Source: Spironucleus salmonicida (taxonomy: Eukaryota). From it: a DNA stretch of 64,000 bases. Both the position numbers and the translations under genes were made by a program. The notes under the pieces were generated by a model. It had not been told where the DNA came from. It saw nothing but the letters and a program-made list of their open reading frames with translations, and did no database searches. Within the stretch, counting starts at the first letter, position 1. Each line of letters opens with the position of its first letter. Location of the stretch: positions 310,001-374,000 of the forward strand of contig NC_090601.1 in the NCBI RefSeq assembly GCF_000497125.1, written 5' to 3'. Positions 39,907 through 51,947 of the stretch are shown piece after piece.

Positions 39907-40001
39907 TTTAAGAATTAGTAGTATCTATATTATATATTATTAATCCTATTTTTAGATAATTAATATTAATATTATTGTATTATAAAAATTGTAAGCTGAA
40001 A

Positions 40002-41351
40002 ATGGCTTAAATGATACTAACAATTTAATTACTTACTTGTGAAGTTAATTATGTTATTTTTAATCCTATTATTTACTTAATTGATATAAATTTAACATGT
40101 AATTGGCAAAATATAACTTTTATGCTTGAAGTAGGAGACTAATAGTAACAATTCGAAAAATAGATTACCTAAATATAGAATCCAGCTTTCTAGTTTTAAA
40201 TTCTACACAAAACACTACCACTGTTTCTTAATATTTACTAAGGTGATATTTAACTTTAGCAGCTACAAGTCTACTAATTTAAAACGGTTATTACAAATCC
40301 TATCACGTGTATATAAAATCTTTTTGTATCCTAATCTTAACTTAAATCATGGTTATCCATTTAGGGAAACTTTACAAAATGTGTATATGATTTTAGTATA
40401 CTAAATTGGTATTTTATGATAAATTAGGTATCTTTGAAGCTTAAATTCAACTAGAGACCTTATTATTCAGAAGAAGTATTGGGAGACATATTTTATTATC
40501 CAATACTATATGTTGAATGTAAAGATGATTAGAATTGTCAGTATGCTCTGGAAAATATCTATCATTTTGAGTAGTAGCTTATTCTAAATGTAGGCAAAGT
40601 AAACATTTCATACAAAAACCTAACAATTTTTACTAATCCTAATAACTTTAATATTGAAATGTAGATAAATAATAAATCAGTTGACGGGGATGTAGATTTT
40701 CAGTATATTTGGGGGTCTATTTATGTTAGTACCAGCCGAATAATGAGATATATCAATACTACATTAGATGCCACATTAATTAAGATGAGTATATTATTGT
40801 ATTCTTCTAATATATCAATTACACTAGTTAATAGTTATGATAATATTTAACAATTTTTAAATCCGTTTCATTTCTTCATTTGTGAGGAAGAATGCTTAGC
40901 TTTAAGGAATTAAACTTACTCAGCAATAATAAAATTCGATTATTTCTTACGAGATATCTTGGTTCAACATAATTCGTTTTATATGAAAAAGTAACCCTAT
41001 TTTCCAGTTAATATACGAATTGATAGTAATTAAATCAATGTTATTTCAGATTTTATTTCGCCTAATAATATAAGTCTCCTTTTTGGAGACTCTATTCTTA
41101 TCCCATTTGAGAAATATATGGGGTCGGGTTTCCGTCCTATGAGTGAAGAAGGTAAAAAGTAGCTAAAACGTTATCCATAACTTTTGTAAAAATACAATAA
41201 ACTTATTGTTATCTTAGAGAACCAGAATTAATCATTTTTCGTTAACAATATTCAAACTTTTACCATTAATTTTCTTATTTTAATTTTAATGGGTTCCGTA
41301 ATTCTTGTTACAACATCATTAGTCATGTTCATGTTATGGAAATTAAAATGA
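40002..41351 (+). CDS. single-pass membrane protein (~449 aa)
   Basis: Short hydrophobic N-terminus (second ATG 40011) and C-terminal TM FLILILMGSVILVTTSLVMFMLW followed by KLK*. Confidence 0.72.
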
Positions 41352-41715
41352 GCTGTAGTAGGAGTAACTATAGTTTATGGAGTATTGTAGTATTAGGTTA
41401 AGGTTAATAATATTTTCTGATTATTAAATTTACAAAGTAAAATTTCCTTAACCCTTTATCATGTATTTATAACCCTTTTATGTAATTAAGCTTATATATT
41501 TTACGAGAATAGCTCTAATATAAATTTTATTAACCTATTTATTTAGTTTTCTTTAACATATTTAAATCAACTGAATAGATATAGTATTTCCTAGTTACAG
41601 ATTTTAACCTCTAGTATCAAAAATACCGATGCAAACTCCTTTTTCAAAGTACTAATAAATCAATTTGTAATAATAAATTAATGTTATCCTATTAATGTAA
41701 TATTTAAAATTGAAC

Positions 41716-42258
41716 TCATATTTCTACTCCACCCCTTCCTCTTACACTTCCAACTTTCCATTCTTCTGAATCTTCAACTTCTAAACAGATCAAATTATCG
41801 TCCAAAGTAAGCAAAAAATTAGGCTGAACTTCATCCAAAATACATATACTATAACTACTGCTATTACTCATATTAAGTTTCTTGAATTTTGGTGCCGAAT
41901 TTTCATGTTAAATTGGTCGTTTTGGAGATGTTTAAGGTCGTTTTGGCATTCTAAACTAGCCTGTAAACAGCGGAGTTTGTAGTTGGGGAGGGGAAGTTTT
42001 CAATTCAATTTAAATATGATTTTCTATTTTTTTAAAGTTAAAACTAATAGTGGTTAAAACAAAGTCTTATGGTAATTCTTAGGCCCCAGCGGCTTTTGTT
42101 CTTGCAATTTATCGCTTTGCTGTTTTTCCTACAGTTGGAGGTTTCGAAAAAATAGCATATTACGGTTAAAGAATAAAAGAAGTTGGAATTTAGGCAAAAT
42201 TTGAGCTATAGAATGCCAGTTTTTATGTTAGTGAGCAAGCAGATTTTGGGCGGTTCAT
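41716..42258 (-). CDS. hypothetical protein, 180 aa
   Basis: Continuous frame MNRPKSACSLTQK...VRGRGGVEI*. Confidence 0.65.
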
Positions 42259-42493
42259 TTACTAAAATATTTAGTATTTATACGTATATAATAATAGATC
42301 TCCGGTTTTTAGTATATGGTAAAATAGAGAATAAATAAAACAGCTAAGAGATAAATTATATAGTATCTGATAAGTGCTTGCTGTTATTTATTAATAACAG
42401 TTTATTAAGAGTCAGTAATAGTATTAACAAATATATTTTAAATAAATTATATAATAATATAATATTATTTACTTTCCGCACGCCTCTTCTTTC

Positions 42494-42958
42494 ATGTCAA
42501 AAACTCCCCCTAAATATGAAACAGACAAAGGTCGATAACGCTTTGAAAGACCGAAAAAAATTTCAAGGTTATAATTATTAAGTGAAGAAATTGTTAAATC
42601 TAGTAATACTCCACAACAATAAGTATTCAAGTACCGCTACCCGCAACCGAAAACTGACGTGAAGGCCGGCTCAAACTAGTGCTTCATAAATATGATGTTA
42701 TCACACTCGGCAATCTATTCGGCATTCTGTTACGTGACGCGCAAGAGGATATCAATCGTGCCGAGTAATTTGTTGGATGTGTTAGCTGTTAAATCCACAT
42801 CGTACAATGTGCTACTAAACTAGGAGTAGAAGTCACTACTTTGGATCAACGACCGCAAACTCCCGGAGAGGGTGATATTGATTGATGCCATTCTGTAGGA
42901 GCCAGGTCTAAACGATACGTGGATTGCAAAACTGAATGCTATGAAAACCTAAAAGTGA
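42494..42958 (+). CDS. chimeric hypothetical protein, 154 aa (46 unique aa + 108 aa from the duplicated arm)
   Basis: C-rich motif before ATG; frame crosses the repeat boundary at 42631/42632 and ends in AAGTGA. Confidence 0.65.
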
Positions 42959-42977
42959 TTCTGTGTGCCACTCCAAA

Positions 42978-43334
42978 ATGGACGCCAACCATATAACATA
43001 AACATCTATTCAGCATATTTACAAGCTCAACGCCCTACGGTCGACGATTGCCTTAGAATACGAGAAGATATCCAGAGATATTCAGGAGTTACGTCGCATT
43101 TAGGTTGAGCTAAAGCTTCCATTGAGTCTTGCGATGAAGACTCTAAATGACCTCATGGTTGAAAAGTCTAATTAACTGCATAAGCTGGATCTGTAGATTA
43201 AGATGTTTGCACTCGCGTGCACACAGGCCGAGAAAACTCTCGAAGAATTTGCTTTCATGGGTCCGCTTATTTCTCGCATCACGTATCCGGAGGTTGCAGT
43301 ACGATCTAGAGTATTAGTTGAGTTCCGGAAGTGA
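42978..43334 (+). CDS. small coiled-coil hypothetical protein, 118 aa (copy 1)
   Basis: MDANHITQTSIQHIYKLN...VLVEFRK* with CCACTCC upstream and AAGTGA stop. Confidence 0.72.
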
Positions 43335-43340
43335 TCACTT
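43329..43340. terminator. back-to-back AGTGA stop/polyadenylation signals of convergent genes
   Basis: Palindrome AAGTGATCACTT; stops at 43332-43334 (+) and 43337-43335 (-). Confidence 0.6.
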
Positions 43341-44426
43341 AAACCTCACCTCACCAATTTTATCCTCGATCTCGACACCTTTATACAGTATCTTCTAAAA
43401 TTTGCCTTTCATTATATGGTACATGAACAAATCCTACTTTGTTGGGGTCCCATAGAAGGTACCAACTGCTTAGTTGATAATGCTTCGATGCTCTGATTGA
43501 AATTCATTAAGATTCTCTAAAATTTTATAATCTAAACTATCAATTTAGTCCTATAACTTAGCTATAACTGGTCCTAAAACAAAAATTCCATAGTCACAAC
43601 ATTGATATTGATGCACTTCAGTATTTAAGTACTAAACTATCGGAGTTATCCCATCTCCCTTGTACATTGGCCCAGAATAAGAGTTTCGAACAAATTAGTT
43701 CCTGCAGCGAAGTAAGTTATCCACTTTATACGGTAAAAGATCGCATGTAGAATAGTGTTAAATAGTATCTTACGATAGTGGGACCTGTTGCTTTGTTTCG
43801 TACGGTTCATGTGTGAAAGAGAAAGTGGAAGATAGAGATGAGTGTGATATGATGATATCTGATGATAATCTAAACAATATGGCCTTATTCACACCATTCT
43901 CATAAAGAATTTTATCACCTTTAGTCATAACCACATGCCTTTGATCTAAATTCTACAAAGAACATATGTGATAGAATGCTCTAAGCGATTAAAAGCCTGA
44001 GAAATCTCGAGGTATACTCATTGTAACAAACGAGGTAAGAACACGTGAATCATGTTAACATAGTTATAAAAATGGTCGAATATAAAATTCAACAATAGCA
44101 CGAGCCATTCGAAACCCGTACTACATGTTTATCTAGCCTATAGTTTACAAATAGATTTGAAGATAAGATACTATTGCCTATGTTAACGCAAAATCATCAG
44201 TAATTACTAATAGTTATTCCCATTACTTAATATATGCTGTTTTATCTGAAAAATTGATCTACTCAAGCGGTGAAGGTCCAAACTATAGAGATAATTAAAA
44301 AGCTGCTGTAAAATATGATGCCTCTCTTATTTAAGATTCAATATTCTATACTGATTCAATATAGAGAATCTAATTATCTTTTGTAAACTCATCTATGATA
44401 TTTTCTGGAAGCAAAATATAAATCAT
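43335..44426 (-). CDS. hypothetical protein, 363 aa (copy 1)
   Basis: MIYILLPENIIDEFTK...IGEVRFK* continuous frame, AAGTGA stop. Confidence 0.78.
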
Positions 44427-44469
44427 TTAAAGTTTAGATATATTATGAATAATATATATGATATGTCAC

Positions 44470-45204
44470 TCAAAGGAACCCATCCTGGAAAGCCTTCCTC
44501 ATATCATCTACGGCGTTTTAATTCATCTATAAACCAAATATAGCTTATACTACGCCGATTTCAGTATTACTGCAATCTCTACCAACAAATCCAACGAAGT
44601 CATTGACAAGGATGCCACCAGAGACCAATTAGCCACCCTTATTTACAGTACCTGAACACACAGGGACACCCAAAAGGGATGCTAATTCTTCTTACTCTTC
44701 CCTGGATACATTGGATCCAACTAAGCATCCCTTATTCGTTACTTTCATGAGAGAACCAACAAGACCAACTCCACCCACGGCGTGGCGAACTACCTCTACG
44801 CCTAAAGCATCAGCTACTACTTCTTCAGTTTCACGCTCTGCATCAGGATGAATTAAGCAAAAATTATCATTACATGCAATAATGTTTCCTAATGCAGAGA
44901 GACGCTCATCAAGTTTTTAAACTACAACATCATCAGGAAGAGCATTCCTAATATTCAAAAATTCTGAATCCGTAACACCTGAAGGTAAAAGTAATCCTTT
45001 TGAGTTACCAGCACATAAGCGTCCTAATAACTTAGAGTTTGCAATAGTAGAGCGGAAAGCAGCCACACCATGTGGTGCTAATGTAGATTCGAGCAATGAA
45101 AAGTAATGAGCTGCTGGAGAAGGTGCAGAGATACAATAATTATTAGTCATTATAGCGAAGACACCGACATCAGGGGAGTTTTCAAAATGTGTTGTATAAG
45201 TCAT
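44470..45204 (-). CDS. EIF6: eukaryotic translation initiation factor 6, 244 aa
   Basis: FENSPDVGVF, GRLCAGNSKGLLLP, ERLSALGNIIACND, GTVNKG, FVGRDCSNTEI. Confidence 0.96.
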
Positions 45205-45261
45205 TGACAGGAAGGGTAAGTGAAAGGGATTTAAAAATAAATATGAAAATAATAATATATA

Positions 45262-46290
45262 TCACAAATATTTTTATGCGTCTTACTCACCAATTGCCTC
45301 ATAATAAAGCTCAAACAACATCATCAAACTATCTAATTTACTGTCATTATAATAAGGAATATCTAATAAAGTACAAATAACCTAAAAATACTAAATTACG
45401 TCTAATTATATTTATGCAGTAGGAAGTAATATTTATTTAACATCATCTTCAAACGTTTTATCGTACATTTCTAAGCATTGTTGATTAATGGGGTGTTTAT
45501 ATTCATATTTTTATGGAGATTTTTAATGTAATTATTCAATTTAAAAAATAAAATCATTTAAAGTTGATAAGTCTGTAACTATAGGTACTTCACAATATTT
45601 TTGGTGTTTTTAGTATAATTTTATTTATGTTTAGCTTAGTTTCGAGATAAGAACTACTTTATTTGATTAATTTATACAAGGTTCGTCTAATACAGATACC
45701 CCTATTTTATCAATTGAGTTATCTGGTCGAGGTAATTTAATATATGGATCCACTTCTCCTATAGAAGGCTAGTACTCTTAAAGAAACGGGACAAATAAAG
45801 TTTCCAATAACATTTCAGTAGGTTAAAATAGTTTATACATATTAATTAGGTCATCATTACTTAATTAAGTGAAATCTAAATCCACGGATTATTCTTCACA
45901 TTAAAGTATATATTTAGTCTAGTTTTGATTAACACGAGAAGATATATGATGCTCATGATGAATAATACCTTCAGTTTATTCAGATAATTAATTAATATTA
46001 TTATTTTGCACTACATCTTAAATTTCATCTTACAGGTTTGCACTAGATATATCGTTATTATATTTTTATTAACATCCATTTTATAATTACTCTGGTGAGT
46101 TAAACAGTTTTTATGAATTGATTATTTCCTCTTCCTAGTCACCTTGGCTGATCGAATCAGAGATTGATGGCGTGGAAGATACAGAATTTCTTAAGTTGCG
46201 CATAATTACAGATTCTAAAGAAGATGGTGCATTAATTTAATATGTTTCATCCATGGAATCTCGAGGCTTTGTTTTCTTAATCGATGCCAT
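45262..46290 (-). CDS. hypothetical protein, 342 aa, in the spacer of the inverted repeat
   Basis: MASIKKTKPRDSMDE...GEQDAQKYL*; frame arithmetic consistent. Confidence 0.72.
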
Positions 46291-46392
46291 TTTAAAAATT
46301 TTATCCAGGAATACAATATAATTAATTTTAATATATTTTTATTTTTATCAATGAAAATTTAAATAGTAAAAAAATTATACCCGTATTATCAA

Positions 46393-46733
46393 ATGCTTTA
46401 GGCGTAGAGGTAGTTCGCCACGCCGTGGGTGGAGTTGGTCTTGTTGGTTCTCTCATGAAAGTAACGAATAAGGGATGCTTAGTTGGATCCAATGTATCCA
46501 GGGAAGAGTAAGAAGAATTAGCATCCCTTTTGGGTGTCCCTGTGTGTTCAGGTACTGTAAATAAGGGTGGCTAATTGGTCTCTGGTGGCATCCTTGTCAA
46601 TGACTTCGTTGGATTTGTTGGTAGAGATTGCAGTAATACTGAAATCGGCGTAGTATAAGCTATATTTGGTTTATAGATGAATTAAAACGCCGTAGATGAT
46701 ATGAGGAAGGCTTTCCAGGATGGGTTCCTTTGA
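46393..46733 (+). pseudogene. 5'-truncated eIF6 copy (last ~113 codons)
   Basis: ALGVEVVRHAVGGVGLVGS...FQDGFL* lacks the N-terminal half; nearby ATGs at 46351 and 46393 are out of frame. Confidence 0.88.
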
Positions 46734-46776
46734 GTGACATATCATATATATTATTCATAATATATCTAAACTTTAA

Positions 46777-47868
46777 ATGATTTATATTTTGCTTCCAGAA
46801 AATATCATAGATGAGTTTACAAAAGATAATTAGATTCTCTATATTGAATCAGTATAGAATATTGAATCTTAAATAAGAGAGGCATCATATTTTACAGCAG
46901 CTTTTTAATTATCTCTATAGTTTGGACCTTCACCGCTTGAGTAGATCAATTTTTCAGATAAAACAGCATATATTAAGTAATGGGAATAACTATTAGTAAT
47001 TACTGATGATTTTGCGTTAACATAGGCAATAGTATCTTATCTTCAAATCTATTTGTAAACTATAGGCTAGATAAACATGTAGTACGGGTTTCGAATGGCT
47101 CGTGCTATTGTTGAATTTTATATTCGACCATTTTTATAACTATGTTAACATGATTCACGTGTTCTTACCTCGTTTGTTACAATGAGTATACCTCGAGATT
47201 TCTCAGGCTTTTAATCGCTTAGAGCATTCTATCACATATGTTCTTTGTAGAATTTAGATCAAAGGCATGTGGTTATGACTAAAGGTGATAAAATTCTTTA
47301 TGAGAATGGTGTGAATAAGGCCATATTGTTTAGATTATCATCAGATATCATCATATCACACTCATCTCTATCTTCCACTTTCTCTTTCACACATGAACCG
47401 TACGAAACAAAGCAACAGGTCCCACTATCGTAAGATACTATTTAACACTATTCTACATGCGATCTTTTACCGTATAAAGTGGATAACTTACTTCGCTGCA
47501 GGAACTAATTTGTTCGAAACTCTTATTCTGGGCCAATGTACAAGGGAGATGGGATAACTCCGATAGTTTAGTACTTAAATACTGAAGTGCATCAATATCA
47601 ATGTTGTGACTATGGAATTTTTGTTTTAGGACCAGTTATAGCTAAGTTATAGGACTAAATTGATAGTTTAGATTATAAAATTTTAGAGAATCTTAATGAA
47701 TTTCAATCAGAGCATCGAAGCATTATCAACTAAGCAGTTGGTACCTTCTATGGGACCCCAACAAAGTAGGATTTGTTCATGTACCATATAATGAAAGGCA
47801 AATTTTAGAAGATACTGTATAAAGGTGTCGAGATCGAGGATAAAATTGGTGAGGTGAGGTTTAAGTGA
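46777..47868 (+). CDS. hypothetical protein, 363 aa (copy 2)
   Basis: Inverted copy of 43335-44426; translated fully without internal TGA. Confidence 0.78.
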
Positions 47869-48225
47869 TCACTTCCGGAACTCAACTAATACTCTAGATC
47901 GTACTGCAACCTCCGGATACGTGATGCGAGAAATAAGCGGACCCATGAAAGCAAATTCTTCGAGAGTTTTCTCGGCCTGTGTGCACGCGAGTGCAAACAT
48001 CTTAATCTACAGATCCAGCTTATGCAGTTAATTAGACTTTTCAACCATGAGGTCATTTAGAGTCTTCATCGCAAGACTCAATGGAAGCTTTAGCTCAACC
48101 TAAATGCGACGTAACTCCTGAATATCTCTGGATATCTTCTCGTATTCTAAGGCAATCGTCGACCGTAGGGCGTTGAGCTTGTAAATATGCTGAATAGATG
48201 TTTATGTTATATGGTTGGCGTCCAT
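47869..48225 (-). CDS. small coiled-coil hypothetical protein, 118 aa (copy 2)
   Basis: Inverted copy of 42978-43334. Confidence 0.72.
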
Positions 48226-48244
48226 TTTGGAGTGGCACACAGAA

Positions 48245-48751
48245 TCACTTTTAGGTTTTCATAGCATTCAGTTTTGCAATCCACGTATCGTTTAGACCTG
48301 GCTCCTACAGAATGGCATCAATCAATATCACCCTCTCCGGGAGTTTGCGGTCGTTGATCCAAAGTAGTGACTTCTACTCCTAGTTTAGTAGCACATTGTA
48401 CGATGTGGATTTAACAGCTAACACATCCAACAAATTACTCGGCACGATTGATATCCTCTTGCGCGTCACGTAACAGAATGCCGAATAGATTGCCGAGTGT
48501 GATAACATCATATTTATGAAGCACTAGTTTGAGCCGGCCTTCACGTCAGTTTTCGGTTGCGGGTAGCGGTATTTCTCCTGTTTGGTATTAAGATAGTGTT
48601 TTTCTTGTTGTATCAGCTATAAATGTACTTATCCATAATGTGAAAATTCACCAATCTCAATCGGTTCAAAATCAGATATATCAAAATAAGCATCATCTGG
48701 AAAATGAGTAGGAGACAATGAATCTATTGTTAGACAAGTTTAACGTTCCAT
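48245..48751 (-). CDS. hypothetical protein, 168 aa (probable parent of the chimera at 42494)
   Basis: MERQTCLTIDSLSPTHFPDDAYF...KQEK|YRYPQPKTDVKAG...MKTQK*. Confidence 0.7.
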
Positions 48752-49232
48752 TTTGAAATGAATATGATTTCTCCGTAAATGTGGATTTATGTATAATATT
48801 ATAAAATATAAAGTTAATTTATTTTAATTTTGTGGTTTAGAATAGATTTACTATTACTTTAATATTTTATAGTAATGGCTAGGATTGTTTTTAGAGCGTT
48901 ACAATATTAGCAATTATAATATATGTTATACTATTTAATCACTAAATTTCGTTAATAGTTAAAATAGTAATATTTATATAATTTTTATCAAGGATAACGG
49001 AAGTTTTTAAACTGAAAATTAGCTGTAAGCAATTCTATACTTGTTATTAAATTATTAGTATAATATAATGCAAGAATGGTAAATATATTTATTCTTAATT
49101 ATTACAATACACAAATCAACCTAAAATTTAAAATTGTGGAACGAGACATATTTTAAATAAATTTTATAATTTAAAAGCTAATAGACAAATACTTGAATAT
49201 AAAAATTTGCCCTATTAATTAAAAATAAAATA

Positions 49233-51947
49233 TCACTCAATATCAACTATATTTTGAGAAACTCTGCCTTACTAGCTAATGGGTTTAGGAATCGGAATAG
49301 GTCTCTTATTTAAAGGTGAACTATAGAGATTTCCTAACATTTTATTAACTTGAGTAGTTTTCTATTAATTTTTGTGCTTAAAAATAATTGGTGGCACTAG
49401 TATTTTAGAATAATTAAGATTCTTCTGATACTATTTGACAGTAATTTACGTCGAATCTTCTTAAATTGCAAAAAATTAAACATTTTATTAACTACCAGAA
49501 CGATGAACTTAATATTCTGAACATGGAATCTGGTATTCTCTAATATCCTCTATATCTGTTCCTGCTTTTAGTGCAAAAACGGCTTTTTCCATATTAGTCA
49601 TTCTATGTTTTTATACACTGACTTTTACATCAGCAATTTCAAAAACAGGATCTGGCATGGTAGGAGGAGATAAAATATTAACAACCTATCGTTTAGGCAA
49701 TGCAACTACTTTTTCAACTACTGCTCGCTCTTCCTTGTCCATTTTATCATTATAAAATGTGGCAACTTTGCCTTACCCATCGACTAAAAATCGTTAGATT
49801 TGCTGTTAAAATTTAAGATTTCTTTGCTTTTTTAGTTCTAGTTTTCGCAACTCTTCAACCCTGCGTTCTTCCTCCTCTTTTTTGCGAAGTTATTCCGCTT
49901 CTTTCCTTTCCTCCTCTTCTTTTCGTCTAGCAAACTCAAAAGCATCGAACTGCCCATCTTCTTTATAACCCCAATCTGAGGATCGTAATTTTGACTGTTC
50001 GCGCTATAATTCTCGCTACCGTTCCTTACTATTTTTTGCCTTTTCTTCTTCTTATCTAATTTTATCCTCCTCGTCTTTTATACGTTATAATTCTGCCTAT
50101 TCAGCTTGATATTTAGCTTCTTCGGCAAGTCTTTTTTCCTCTTCGATTCTTCTTTTTTCCTCTTCTAATCTAAGTATTTCATCTTTTAAACTGTCTTAAA
50201 ATGTTATTCCCGGTTATTATGGTGAGAACATAAATAACATTTTAGATTTTCCTCCAAAATATTCGAATACCAAATTTGGATTAAAACCTGTATTCGTAGA
50301 AGTTCGAGCAGTCATTAAAGCCATACTTTACCTAGTAATATTAGTCACACTCTATCTTTCTATTGTTTCACTTTCCCTTATTTCTGTTGTATCTTCATCT
50401 GGGATTTTCGGATATTCTGTAATTTTCTTTGCTTCAGAATAAATCATATCCTAACAGTAAAATCTAACAGTACAAGACTGAGTTAAAATAGTATCTATAG
50501 CACCATTTGATTTTTTAACCGCTTCTTCAATTTATTTTTTTGGAATTGAGATTTTTTATAATCTAAAATGACTTCCTTTTTCATATATCAAACAATGCAT
50601 TGATATACCTTTACTAGAAGATGCTATTAAAGATTTTTAATTGTTAGTCAAAAGTTTGACAACAGATGATAAATTTCCTCTATGCATCATCTAAATATGT
50701 AATTTATTATCTATTGGTTTACAAATCGCAATATTTCCAGTTCCAATTTCAAACTTTTAAATTAAATTTTAATGCGAAATCTCTTTATTATTCATTAATA
50801 AGAACCCAAATTAAATACTACTTTATGGTATTTTCGCAGCGAGTAGAGCGATAGACTTGTGTAATGGTTAAAAATCCAAAAATAAAGCTGTAGGGTGACA
50901 TTCTTTTGGTACAAATGAAGTTTCTATATAAAACATAACTTCTCCACAAACTTAAAACTATTAATAATCATCAGATGCAACTGATATTTCTTCACATATA
51001 TGTATATCTGATTATATAATTTTTAGTAGTTTCTTATTTTCTGACTCAGTTTACCAAGGAATTGATGCATAATTACTTTTATTAATAGTAACAAGTTTAT
51101 GGTTCAATAGTTGAAAATATCTATTAATAAGCCCTGGATTTAATAATTACTAAAACTTTACATTAACACCATTCTTTGTTTAAAATGTCTCCAACCCATT
51201 TCTTTACATATAAATAATAGTATCAAGAAAACATAAAACTCGTGGATCAAACTGTAAATCAATTTATTCTACATTAAATAAAGCTCCTTTTGTAAGAAGT
51301 TGATTTGGATAAAATTTCATATTAAAAAGAGTGAAACTATTCTATTTTTCTCCTATTTTTACTGCAAAAATAATCTTAATTAGTAATTCAGGTTAATAAG
51401 GAATAAGAATATTCGATAGATCACCATGTCGACCTCCTAAAAACTTAATGACTTTCATTTTATCAGTCTATATTTCTACTGCTATAAAATTGCTAAAATT
51501 AAGCTCACAAAGTGGAAACTTGAAATCGTTCAAATTGAGTTCAACAAGGGGAAATCTGCACACTCCTTGCATAGGTACTTCAGTAACGACAATTTCAGAC
51601 ACAATTTCTCCTATTTTAGATTTAAAAATTATCACTTGGTGTTCTGTAGAAGTCAATTAGATTTAAGAAGTCGCGTGGAAATAATGAATATCATAAACAT
51701 TAAGCTATGTATCATACTATTAGATTAGAGAAACTTAGAGTAGTAGAATTATGCTAGAATCATACGGCTAAATTTGAAGTTCAACGATTCCATGTAATTG
51801 AGAAACTGGCGCAAATGAAGAATTAGACTCATATTAGATTTATTCATCAGGAATCATAATTCCTTTAATAGATGTATGCGTTGCACTTTACGATTTTAGA
51901 TTTGTATGCTTGAGTTCGTACCCAATTAACACATTATAATATGGCAT
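49233..51947 (-). CDS. large hypothetical protein with charged helical segment, 904 aa
   Basis: ATG 51947 in frame with ORF-track fragment 51468-51656 and GAGTGA stop; E/K/R-rich tract around 49800-50190. Confidence 0.78.

Follow-up and report, generated by a model that had tools for sequence, protein, structure and literature searches.

The palindromes of the human Y chromosome and the inverted repeats of plastids are homogenised by GC-biased gene conversion from one arm to the other. In Giardia lamblia WB, 14 identical inverted vsp pairs have been described, which surround spacers of 2,190-3,847 bp and end at abrupt points of divergence (Adam et al. 2010, PMC2996952). Inverted duplications can also accompany chromosomal rearrangements: in Drosophila they were found at 17 of 29 fixed inversions, in 12 of these 17 at one breakpoint only, and the longest of them measure about 1.9 kb (Ranz et al. 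2007, PMC1885836). Drosophila Hun and C. elegans fog-2, finally, are examples of a class of genes named "partial duplicate with recruitment" (Katju 2012, PMC3449122). Here we describe a locus of the diplomonad Spironucleus salmonicida in which these themes meet: a gene that consists of a partial duplicate and a recruited N-terminus, and that straddles the border of an inverted repeat. The locus lies in a stretch of 64,000 nucleotides (NCBI RefSeq assembly GCF_000497125.1, contig NC_090601.1, positions 310,001 to 374,000 of the forward strand), which we call the window and to which all positions refer.

The gene under study, referred to as the left gene, shares its C-terminal part with a second gene on the opposite strand, the right gene. 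A prediction made from the letters of this DNA had interpreted the pair as the birth of a gene at the breakpoint of a duplication, which would have produced a ready-to-express chimeric gene by exchanging an acidic N-terminus for a basic one. The account that we favour, and to which we assign a probability of roughly three in four, is that an inversion left behind a partial duplicate of the right gene, that this duplicate recruited a new head and is transcribed as the left gene, and that the arms of the resulting palindrome have been homogenised by conversion.

Results

Two genes share their C-terminal part through a perfect inverted repeat

We translated the window with NCBI table 6 (code 6), in which TAA and TAG encode Gln and TGA is the only stop codon. 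Under this code the two genes give exactly the proteins of the original prediction, that is, two different N-termini of 46 and 60 residues joined to one identical C-terminus of 108 residues. The left protein is already present in a public protein collection as a predicted protein. The final 108 residues of the two proteins are identical because both C-termini lie within an inverted repeat, the arms of which (Table 1) match at 2,179 of 2,179 positions when compared base by base. A repeat search delimited slightly wider arms (42629-44820 and 46383-48574), and all 5 mismatches between these are confined to the added fringe bases. Arms and spacer together form a palindrome of 5.9 kb. It is the sole repeat of the window, in which no second one of at least 80 nt was found. 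The duplicated sequence itself is non-repetitive and holds ordinary genes, and no tRNA or Rfam elements were found in or around it (40000-51000 / 41000-50000 scanned).

The outer joints read AAG/TAC on the left and AAA/TAC on the right, as had been predicted; that both fall on a codon boundary behind a Lys codon is a trivial coincidence. Beyond both borders the identity drops from 100% to 27-32% (ungapped), which is the background for AT-rich DNA, and the flanks have at most two bases in common at the outer joint. Homology between the DNA flanks outside the borders was not detected, the best local match being AT-rich and equalled by 5% of shuffles, and the left and right N-termini show no similarity beyond chance (24% of shuffles score as high). 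We also considered whether the border of identity might be the edge of a conversion tract inside a larger, old duplication. This idea was dropped because there is no residual homology past the borders of the repeat.

A pair of 33-nt AT-rich lookalikes is present upstream of the two genes, at 42436-42468 (26-58 nt upstream of the left ATG) and at 48792-48827 (41-76 nt upstream of the right ATG). The pair is equalled by 5% of shuffles and may be due to chance in AT-rich spacers.

All four joints of the repeat are present in short reads

Eight public sequencing runs contain the stretch, four of DNA and four (X5-X8) guessed to be RNA, although none is recorded as such. We examined two DNA runs (X1 and X2, from one sample) and two RNA-like runs (X5 and X6, from another study) over the region 41700-46450. 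In both DNA runs the repeat formed one unitig of exactly 2,179 nt. Its word depth was 438.8 in run X1, against 170.6-175.9 in the flanks (2.5x), and 26.8 in run X2, against 11.6-12.0 (2.3x). In either run the contig of the left flank enters the repeat for 30 nt. Another long contig, which opens with the same 30 nt, corresponds to the side of the right flank, with letters 607-629 where predicted. The spacer was recovered from both runs as a single-copy unitig; it measures 1,642 nt, the outermost 30 nt on either side being repeat sequence. A repeat depth of 2.3-2.5x, together with contig overlaps at outer and inner joints, demonstrates that all four joints exist in the short reads and that the segment is present twice. 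The left joint, on which the predicted gene depends, is therefore found in the DNA contigs of two of the two DNA runs. The orientation of the spacer is invisible to short reads. Our conclusions are independent of it because the four joints are the same whichever way the spacer is turned.

The arms are perfectly identical, and the short-read runs may share the sample of the assembly; both facts would suit an artefact in which a fold-back or chimeric long read produced the palindrome and the left joint is absent from the organism. Such an artefact is, however, hard to reconcile with the raised depth of the repeat in both DNA runs, with the presence of outer and inner joints alike as contig overlaps, and with an RNA-like contig of another study that spans the left joint (see below). 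In addition, long-read cover was checked at the largest duplications in the genome paper (PMC9509377). We consider an assembly artefact extremely improbable.

Paralogs point to the right gene as the parent

A profile search of 1.84 billion representatives gave six proteins at E <=0.001, and a word-indexed search with the family alignment gave five. The named members of the family are all from S. salmonicida (SS50377_25757, SS50377_24765 and SS50377_24734), and one of these named paralogs lies on the same contig as the left and right genes. One protein, P0005, is a fragment of 78 aa. Another (P0007; 547 aa, E 4.2e-4) contains seven repeated stretches; it was judged unrelated and was excluded from all alignments.

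An acidic N-terminal motif (..S-I-S/T-D-F/L/M-E/M-P..) is common to P0002 (the right protein), P0003, P0004 and P0006, that is, to all four full-length members besides the left protein, and nothing like it is present in the left protein in the family alignment. In tblastn, P0003 matched the right gene over its residues 10-171 (57% identity, E 5.8e-57), and it matched the left gene from the repeat border on only (residues 65-171, E 1.9e-41). Because the paralogs carry the N-terminal motif of the right gene, and because P0003 matches the left gene only past the border, the right gene is the parent and the left gene its derived, headless copy. This call was made with paralogs, not with an orthologue. 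The predicted exchange of an acidic for a basic N-terminus is borne out by the net charges (-7 for the right and +6 for the left N-terminus), the acidic head being the ancestral one, as found in four of four other full-length paralogs.

The left arm runs on into a complete eIF6 gene, which at first sight marks it as the original copy; on that reading the polarity would be reversed, with the basic-headed left gene ancestral and the right gene chimeric. The eIF6 gene fixes the inner joint only, however, and a flip of the spacer between perfect arms leaves every joint unchanged. Moreover, the N-terminus of the right gene is homologous to those of P0003, P0004 and P0006, whereas that of the left gene is not. 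The reversed order of events is thus highly improbable, and we treat the right gene as the parent in what follows.

When proteins of 84-270 aa were searched, the recruited 46 residues had no relatives except themselves, and the search for a donor of the recruited 46 codons gave no significant match elsewhere in the 64-kb window. As far as a donor was looked for among these proteins and in the window, the left gene thus belongs to the partial duplicates with recruitment (Katju 2012) and not to the true chimeras of two duplicated sources.

The repeat border spares the predicted folded domain

Structures were predicted with AlphaFold2 using a six-sequence alignment. In the model of the parent the N-terminal 57 residues have low confidence and are followed by five helices (residues 76-164) with a predicted local distance difference test score (pLDDT) of about 81-92. 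The model of the left protein contains the same five helices (residues 62-150, pLDDT about 85-92) behind a new head of low confidence. In these models, then, the repeat border falls in a low-confidence linker and spares the whole predicted folded domain.

The identity of this domain was pursued in several collections. No Pfam family reached its cut-off for the gene family. DUF3314 (PF11771) scored with P0004 only (22.1 bits, E 1.8e-4, profile positions 1-56 of 162; cut-off 25 bits), and did not match P0001, P0002, P0003, P0005 or P0006; our literature search on DUF3314 found nothing. The ESM Atlas gave no usable match by features and a template modelling (TM) score of at most 0.36 by structure, and the best Foldseek hit against the PDB had an E of 0.18, with none at <=0.001. 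In a wide VIA-align search the best Z was 6.6, with 14 chains at Z >=5 and none at Z >=8, which is under the level counted as meaningful for helical bundles. As far as these searches reached, the family appears to be an orphan restricted to Spironucleus.

One member of the family, P0006 (SS50377_24734), which is encoded outside the window, has a strikingly higher content of Ala, Gly, Arg and Leu than its paralogs. Such a composition would be expected if its gene sits in a strongly GC-enriched, perhaps duplicated, region.

An RNA-like contig spans the left joint

Judging from their pattern of cover and from a contig end with a T-run and adaptor, runs X5 and X6 look like poly(A) RNA. The contigs have the size of genes, with zero cover in the spacers 42336-42494 and 46311-46450, and the word depth of neighbouring genes differs up to about 100-fold (757-1000 for eIF6, about 3-20 for IFT46). 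The contig end with adaptor and T-run is located at 41703, 13 nt past the stop codon of a 180-aa gene that is divergent from the left gene. It matches, as a poly(A) site, the published 3' untranslated regions (UTRs) of 9-14 nt of the species, which average 13.2 nt (PMC1805757).

A contig of run X6 (42504-44397) spans the left joint with 0 differences and has 128 nt on the unique side. A contig of run X5 contains 213 nt of the unique side of the right gene together with the repeat, and reaches to 33 nt upstream of the right ATG. Each outer joint is thus bridged in one of the two RNA-like runs, the left one in X6 and the right one in X5. Carry-over of DNA, or read-through from upstream, does not explain the X6 contig because cover is zero in 42336-42494 in both runs. 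Since contigs drop minor branches, the blank of X5 at 42495-42631 and that of X5 and X6 at 46311-46450 were not used as evidence on the joints.

The contigs of control genes also end near their ATGs, about 4-20 nt to either side. For eIF6 the end is at 45200, with the ATG at 45204-45202; the contigs of IFT46 stop 8 nt before reaching the ATG or overshoot it by 19 nt, and those of the 180-aa gene stop 7 nt before it or overshoot it by 10 nt. The start of the left contig is compatible with the very short leaders of diplomonads, and is no proof that ATG 42494 is in the mRNA. Long antisense read-through from the neighbouring 363-aa gene is unlikely because 3' UTRs are short and antisense expressed sequence tags (ESTs) make up about 1% (PMC1805757). 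The results of run X6 indicate that the left gene is transcribed, as far as an RNA-like contig that carries no strand can tell, and provide the transcript across the left joint that the original prediction had called for, in one of the two RNA-like runs examined. The strong C-rich promoter that the original prediction ascribed to the left gene is given no weight here. A scan of 42200-42700 for sigma-70 promoters and terminators found nothing; its model is bacterial and not applicable to a eukaryote.

Proposed origin of the palindrome

Two of the four joints appear to be ancestral because genes run through them: the family gene through the joint between the right arm and the right flank, and eIF6 through that between the left arm and the spacer. 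The new joints would consequently be the other two, 42631/42632 (left flank to left arm) and 46392/46393 (spacer to right arm). In the ancestral order the left flank (to 42631) would have been followed by the reversed spacer with IFT46 and the 5' part of eIF6, and then by a segment with the rest of eIF6, the 363-aa gene, a 118-aa gene and the family gene's last 108 codons. The right flank, with the family gene's own 60 N-terminal codons and promoter, would have come last. In the simplest history, a single rearrangement would have inverted the spacer together with this segment while a second copy of the segment was left in place. The staggered-break model of inversion gives this outcome when one breakpoint alone is staggered (Ranz et al. 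2007, PMC1885836). An inverted duplicative insertion with a later flip between the arms would yield the same joints and is indistinguishable from it here. At 42631/42632 a headless copy of the family gene would have landed in frame behind 46 codons and an ATG, beside an AT-rich divergent intergenic region, and at 46392/46393 a dead 3' piece of eIF6 would have been left behind. The lack of homology at the joints would fit end joining rather than ectopic exchange. Joints of an older allele were not seen in the read contigs of 41700-46450.

In the ancestral order proposed here 475 nt would separate the 180-aa gene from IFT46, which is close to the mean intergenic length of the genome (460 bp; PMC9509377, Table 1), and ATG 42494 would head an ORF (open reading frame) of 60 codons that ends 57 nt before the ATG of IFT46. 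Most simply, the recruited 46 codons would be former IFT46-upstream DNA. Alternatively, the head might be the 5' part, with promoter, of a small gene that existed before the rearrangement and was severed by it, in which case the left gene would be a true chimera of two genes. The recruited 138 nt have a GC content of 0.297 (0.174 at third codon positions, GC3, and 0.30-0.43 at the first two, GC12), which is coding-like compared with the adjoining intergenic DNA (0.21 and 0.13); the 60-codon ORF and the sharp onset of transcription near ATG 42494 would likewise suit such a gene. On the other hand, a captured gene would be one whose 46 residues have no relatives in the proteins searched and whose 60 codons are about the length of a chance ORF here, and it would have occupied a gap already near the mean intergenic length. 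We regard the capture of a gene as unlikely and prefer the recruitment of DNA from upstream of IFT46.

Silent-site GC steps up at the borders of the repeat

In the parent gene GC3 rises from 10 of 60 unique codons to 64 of 108 duplicated codons (0.17 to 0.59; Fisher 6e-8). In bins of 15 codons it changes from 0.07-0.33 to 0.60-0.73 at codon 61, the first duplicated one. A similar step is present in eIF6, from 26 of 131 unique to 42 of 112 duplicated codons (0.20 to 0.38; p 0.0026). Codon positions 1 and 2 show no like shift at the borders, and the unique genes of the window have a GC3 of 0.20-0.26. Within the arms the rise is greatest toward the outer ends and least in the middle, where the 363-aa ORF has a GC3 of 0.30.

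Because GC3 steps up at the borders of the repeat, the duplication seems to be old rather than fresh. These steps in composition suggest that the arms have probably undergone long-term GC-biased gene conversion, and that their identity reflects concerted evolution: conversion would have kept the arms identical while raising silent-site GC within the repeat. To our knowledge no sexual cycle is known for this diplomonad. Neither the locus nor GC-biased conversion in diplomonads was found described in the literature that we searched. The same trend holds at the level of the genome, where 19.2% of the assembly consists of duplicated regions (>=2 kb, >=95% identity) with a GC content of 44.7%, compared with 30.7% in the remainder (PMC9509377). 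We are aware of no published explanation for this excess.

An open frame at the joint is weak evidence of function

We read upstream from 124,980 positions on both strands of the whole window. An ATG precedes the first in-frame TGA at 54% of these positions, and the extension is at least 46 codons long at 34%. An ATG-headed frame is weak evidence because the single-stop code yields one at so many positions, and the open head of 46 codons means little. The other new joint provides a built-in control. There, an ATG-headed ORF of 188 aa (46167-46733, +) is made up of 75 codons antisense to and upstream of IFT46 and the last 113 codons of eIF6. This ORF is the twin of the left chimera and is probably dead. 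The intact C-terminal part of the left gene is likewise no sign of selection on the left copy because gene conversion from arm to arm would preserve it. The intact ORF of the left gene is thus not evidence of function.

The listing of ORFs under table 6 is crowded with long spurious frames. The right gene, for instance, is "extended" to 412 aa (48245-49483, -), from an ATG deep within the AT-rich spacer. In the S. salmonicida genome, the length of an ORF by itself says little.

The left ORF may amount to a pseudogene, a by-product that is transcribed but serves no selected function. We lean slightly towards this view, which differs from the account given above on function only. The frequency of chance extensions and the ATG-headed frame on the dead eIF6 piece agree with it. 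Conversion from the selected right copy would keep the shared part intact, as the identity of the arms over 2,179 nt and the GC3 steps suggest; the family-wide N-terminal motif is gone, and the recruited part has no relatives. By contrast, the sharp onset of transcription near the ATG, and a border that spares the whole folded domain, speak against it. If the duplication is old, the 46-codon head has also stayed open, which is a weak argument since TGA is rare in AT-rich DNA. That the left protein has a selected function is possible but rather doubtful. If made, it would keep the five-helix domain, would have lost the acidic N-terminal motif of the family and would have gained a Lys/Arg-rich tail; it is speculation that it might act as a decoy or be localised differently. 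Of the predicted ready-to-express chimeric gene, the gene-like chimera made by the duplication border stands, and the working new gene, in the sense of translation and function, is unsupported.

Genes in the arms and in the spacer

From outside to inside, the arms contain the 108 C-terminal codons of the family gene, the 118-aa ORF, the 363-aa ORF and the 3' part of eIF6 (Table 1). The 118-aa and 363-aa ORFs are convergent and their stop codons abut (43332-43334 and 43335-43337). The complete eIF6 gene matches PF01912 with 220 bits and an E of 2.6e-65 over profile positions 2-194 of 197. There are no introns at the locus.

Table 1. Positions of the genes, repeat arms and joints discussed in the text.
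Feature	Position in the window	Strand	Remarks
180-aa gene, divergent from the left gene	41716-42258	-	Bounds the 235-nt AT-rich region upstream of ATG 42494; RNA-like contigs
Left gene (P0001), 154 aa = 46 + 108	42494-42958	+	Derived copy of the family gene, which lost its 5' part and gained 46 recruited codons
Recruited 46 codons	42494-42631	+	Unique sequence; basic, net charge +6
Left arm of the perfect inverted repeat	42632-44810		0 mismatches to the right arm; single 2,179-nt unitig in X1 and X2
118-aa ORF, coiled-coil-like	42978-43334; copy 47869-48225	+; copy -	No Pfam match; GC3 0.49; RNA-like contigs
363-aa ORF	43335-44426; copy 46777-47868	-; copy +	No Pfam match; covered by RNA-like contigs
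Complete eIF6 gene	44470-45204	-	Crosses the inner border of the left arm (44810/44811); marks this joint as probably ancestral
Unique spacer, 1,582 nt	44811-46392		5' part of eIF6 and IFT46; would be the inverted segment
IFT46 gene	45262-46290	-	PF12317, E 5.8e-37; its former upstream DNA would now head the left gene
eIF6 3' piece in the right arm	46393-46733	+	PF01912 positions 122-194 only, E 4.2e-21; marks 46392/46393 as probably new
Right arm of the perfect inverted repeat	46393-48571		Supported by repeat search, base comparison and read contigs
Right gene (P0002), 168 aa = 60 + 108	48245-48751	-	Full-length member with acidic N-terminal motif; parent

Discussion

The structure found here is real and well resolved, and the original reading of it is for the most part right. 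Several points weigh against the account that we favour. The two DNA runs possibly come from the assembly's own sample and are in that case not fully independent of it. The RNA nature of runs X5 and X6 is supported by their cover pattern and by a T-run and adaptor end only, and their contigs carry no strand. The left joint is bridged in one of these two runs, X5 having no contig over 42495-42631, and the contig of X6 that bridges it begins only at 42504, which is 10 nt downstream of the A of ATG 42494. An out-of-frame ATG follows at 42516, and the first in-frame ones thereafter are those of Met67/68, within the shared part. ORF evidence for the left gene is weak, given the rates of chance extension. 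As to its history, the former adjacency of the left flank and IFT46, and the age of the event, are read from this locus and not from the gene order of an outgroup; the recruited DNA is richer in GC than the intergenic DNA on its flanks, which a captured piece of an older small gene fits about as well as the recruitment of non-coding DNA does; and the GC3 steps could in principle predate the duplication.

A bolder version of the account holds that the palindrome is old and undergoes frequent GC-biased conversion, that the left gene is a working neo-paralog which, with a basic tail in place of the acidic motif, acts unlike its parent (perhaps by serving as a decoy or by working in a different compartment), and that the single-stop code and the AT-rich spacers make recruitment unusually productive in diplomonads. 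We consider this combination quite unlikely. If it were true, single-stop code and AT-rich spacers would provide diplomonads with an unusually productive route of recruitment, in a genome of which a fifth is duplicated.

The locus is a clean, fully resolved case in which the border of a rearrangement yields a transcribed gene variant in one step, in the compact genome of a protist, and the second new joint, with its dead piece of eIF6, supplies a negative twin. It also carries a practical consequence. Because about half of random joints supply an in-frame ATG when TGA is the only stop codon, calls of gene birth that are based on ORFs need RNA and protein evidence in diplomonads and in other organisms that use code 6. 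The GC3 steps exactly at the borders offer a local mechanistic reading of the GC excess in duplicated regions, and they suggest that GC-biased gene conversion takes place in a species about whose recombination little is known. For a family that is, as far as the searches reached, an orphan restricted to Spironucleus, no claim of direct relevance to function or disease can be made.

How does the locus compare with known systems? It resembles the palindromes of the Y chromosome and of plastids in that its arms are identical despite signs of age and in that silent-site GC is raised inside the repeat only. It differs from them in size, with arms of 2 kb as opposed to tens of kb to Mb, and in that conversion is here deduced from steps in composition.

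The vsp pairs of Giardia belong to a sister lineage. Like these, the palindrome consists of identical inverted copies around unique DNA (1,582 bp here) and diverges abruptly (Adam et al. 2010). The Giardia pairs comprise complete surface-antigen genes, and their points of divergence lie 139-729 bp beyond the ORFs, whereas the border in S. salmonicida cuts two unrelated genes. Furthermore, no cysteine-rich surface protein is encoded at the S. salmonicida locus, and one copy of each cut gene is truncated.

The inversions of Drosophila are close in structure (Ranz et al. 2007). In both systems non-repetitive, genic sequence is present as an inverted duplication at the ends of a short segment. One breakpoint region has been duplicated, as in 12 of the 17 Drosophila cases, homology at the joints is lacking and genes are truncated at the borders. 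With 2,179 nt the arm slightly exceeds the longest Drosophila duplication (about 1.9 kb). The inverted segment, of about 1.6 kb plus the arm, is tiny. The Drosophila duplicates diverge whereas the arms in S. salmonicida are identical, and the inversion is here deduced from the genes that the joints interrupt.

The left gene itself is closest to the partial duplicates with recruitment of Katju (2012). Only part of one parental ORF was copied (the last 108 of 168 codons), the derived ORF was completed with unique sequence of its new neighbourhood, and either copy has coding sequence that is absent from the other. In contrast to the examples of that class, the copy lies within a palindrome, where the part that it shares with its parent is unable to diverge. 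The locus is also free of introns and read with TGA as the sole stop codon, so that recruitment proceeded without splice sites and was near a coin toss. Set beside these systems, the palindrome of S. salmonicida represents a tidy but familiar route to a new gene variant.

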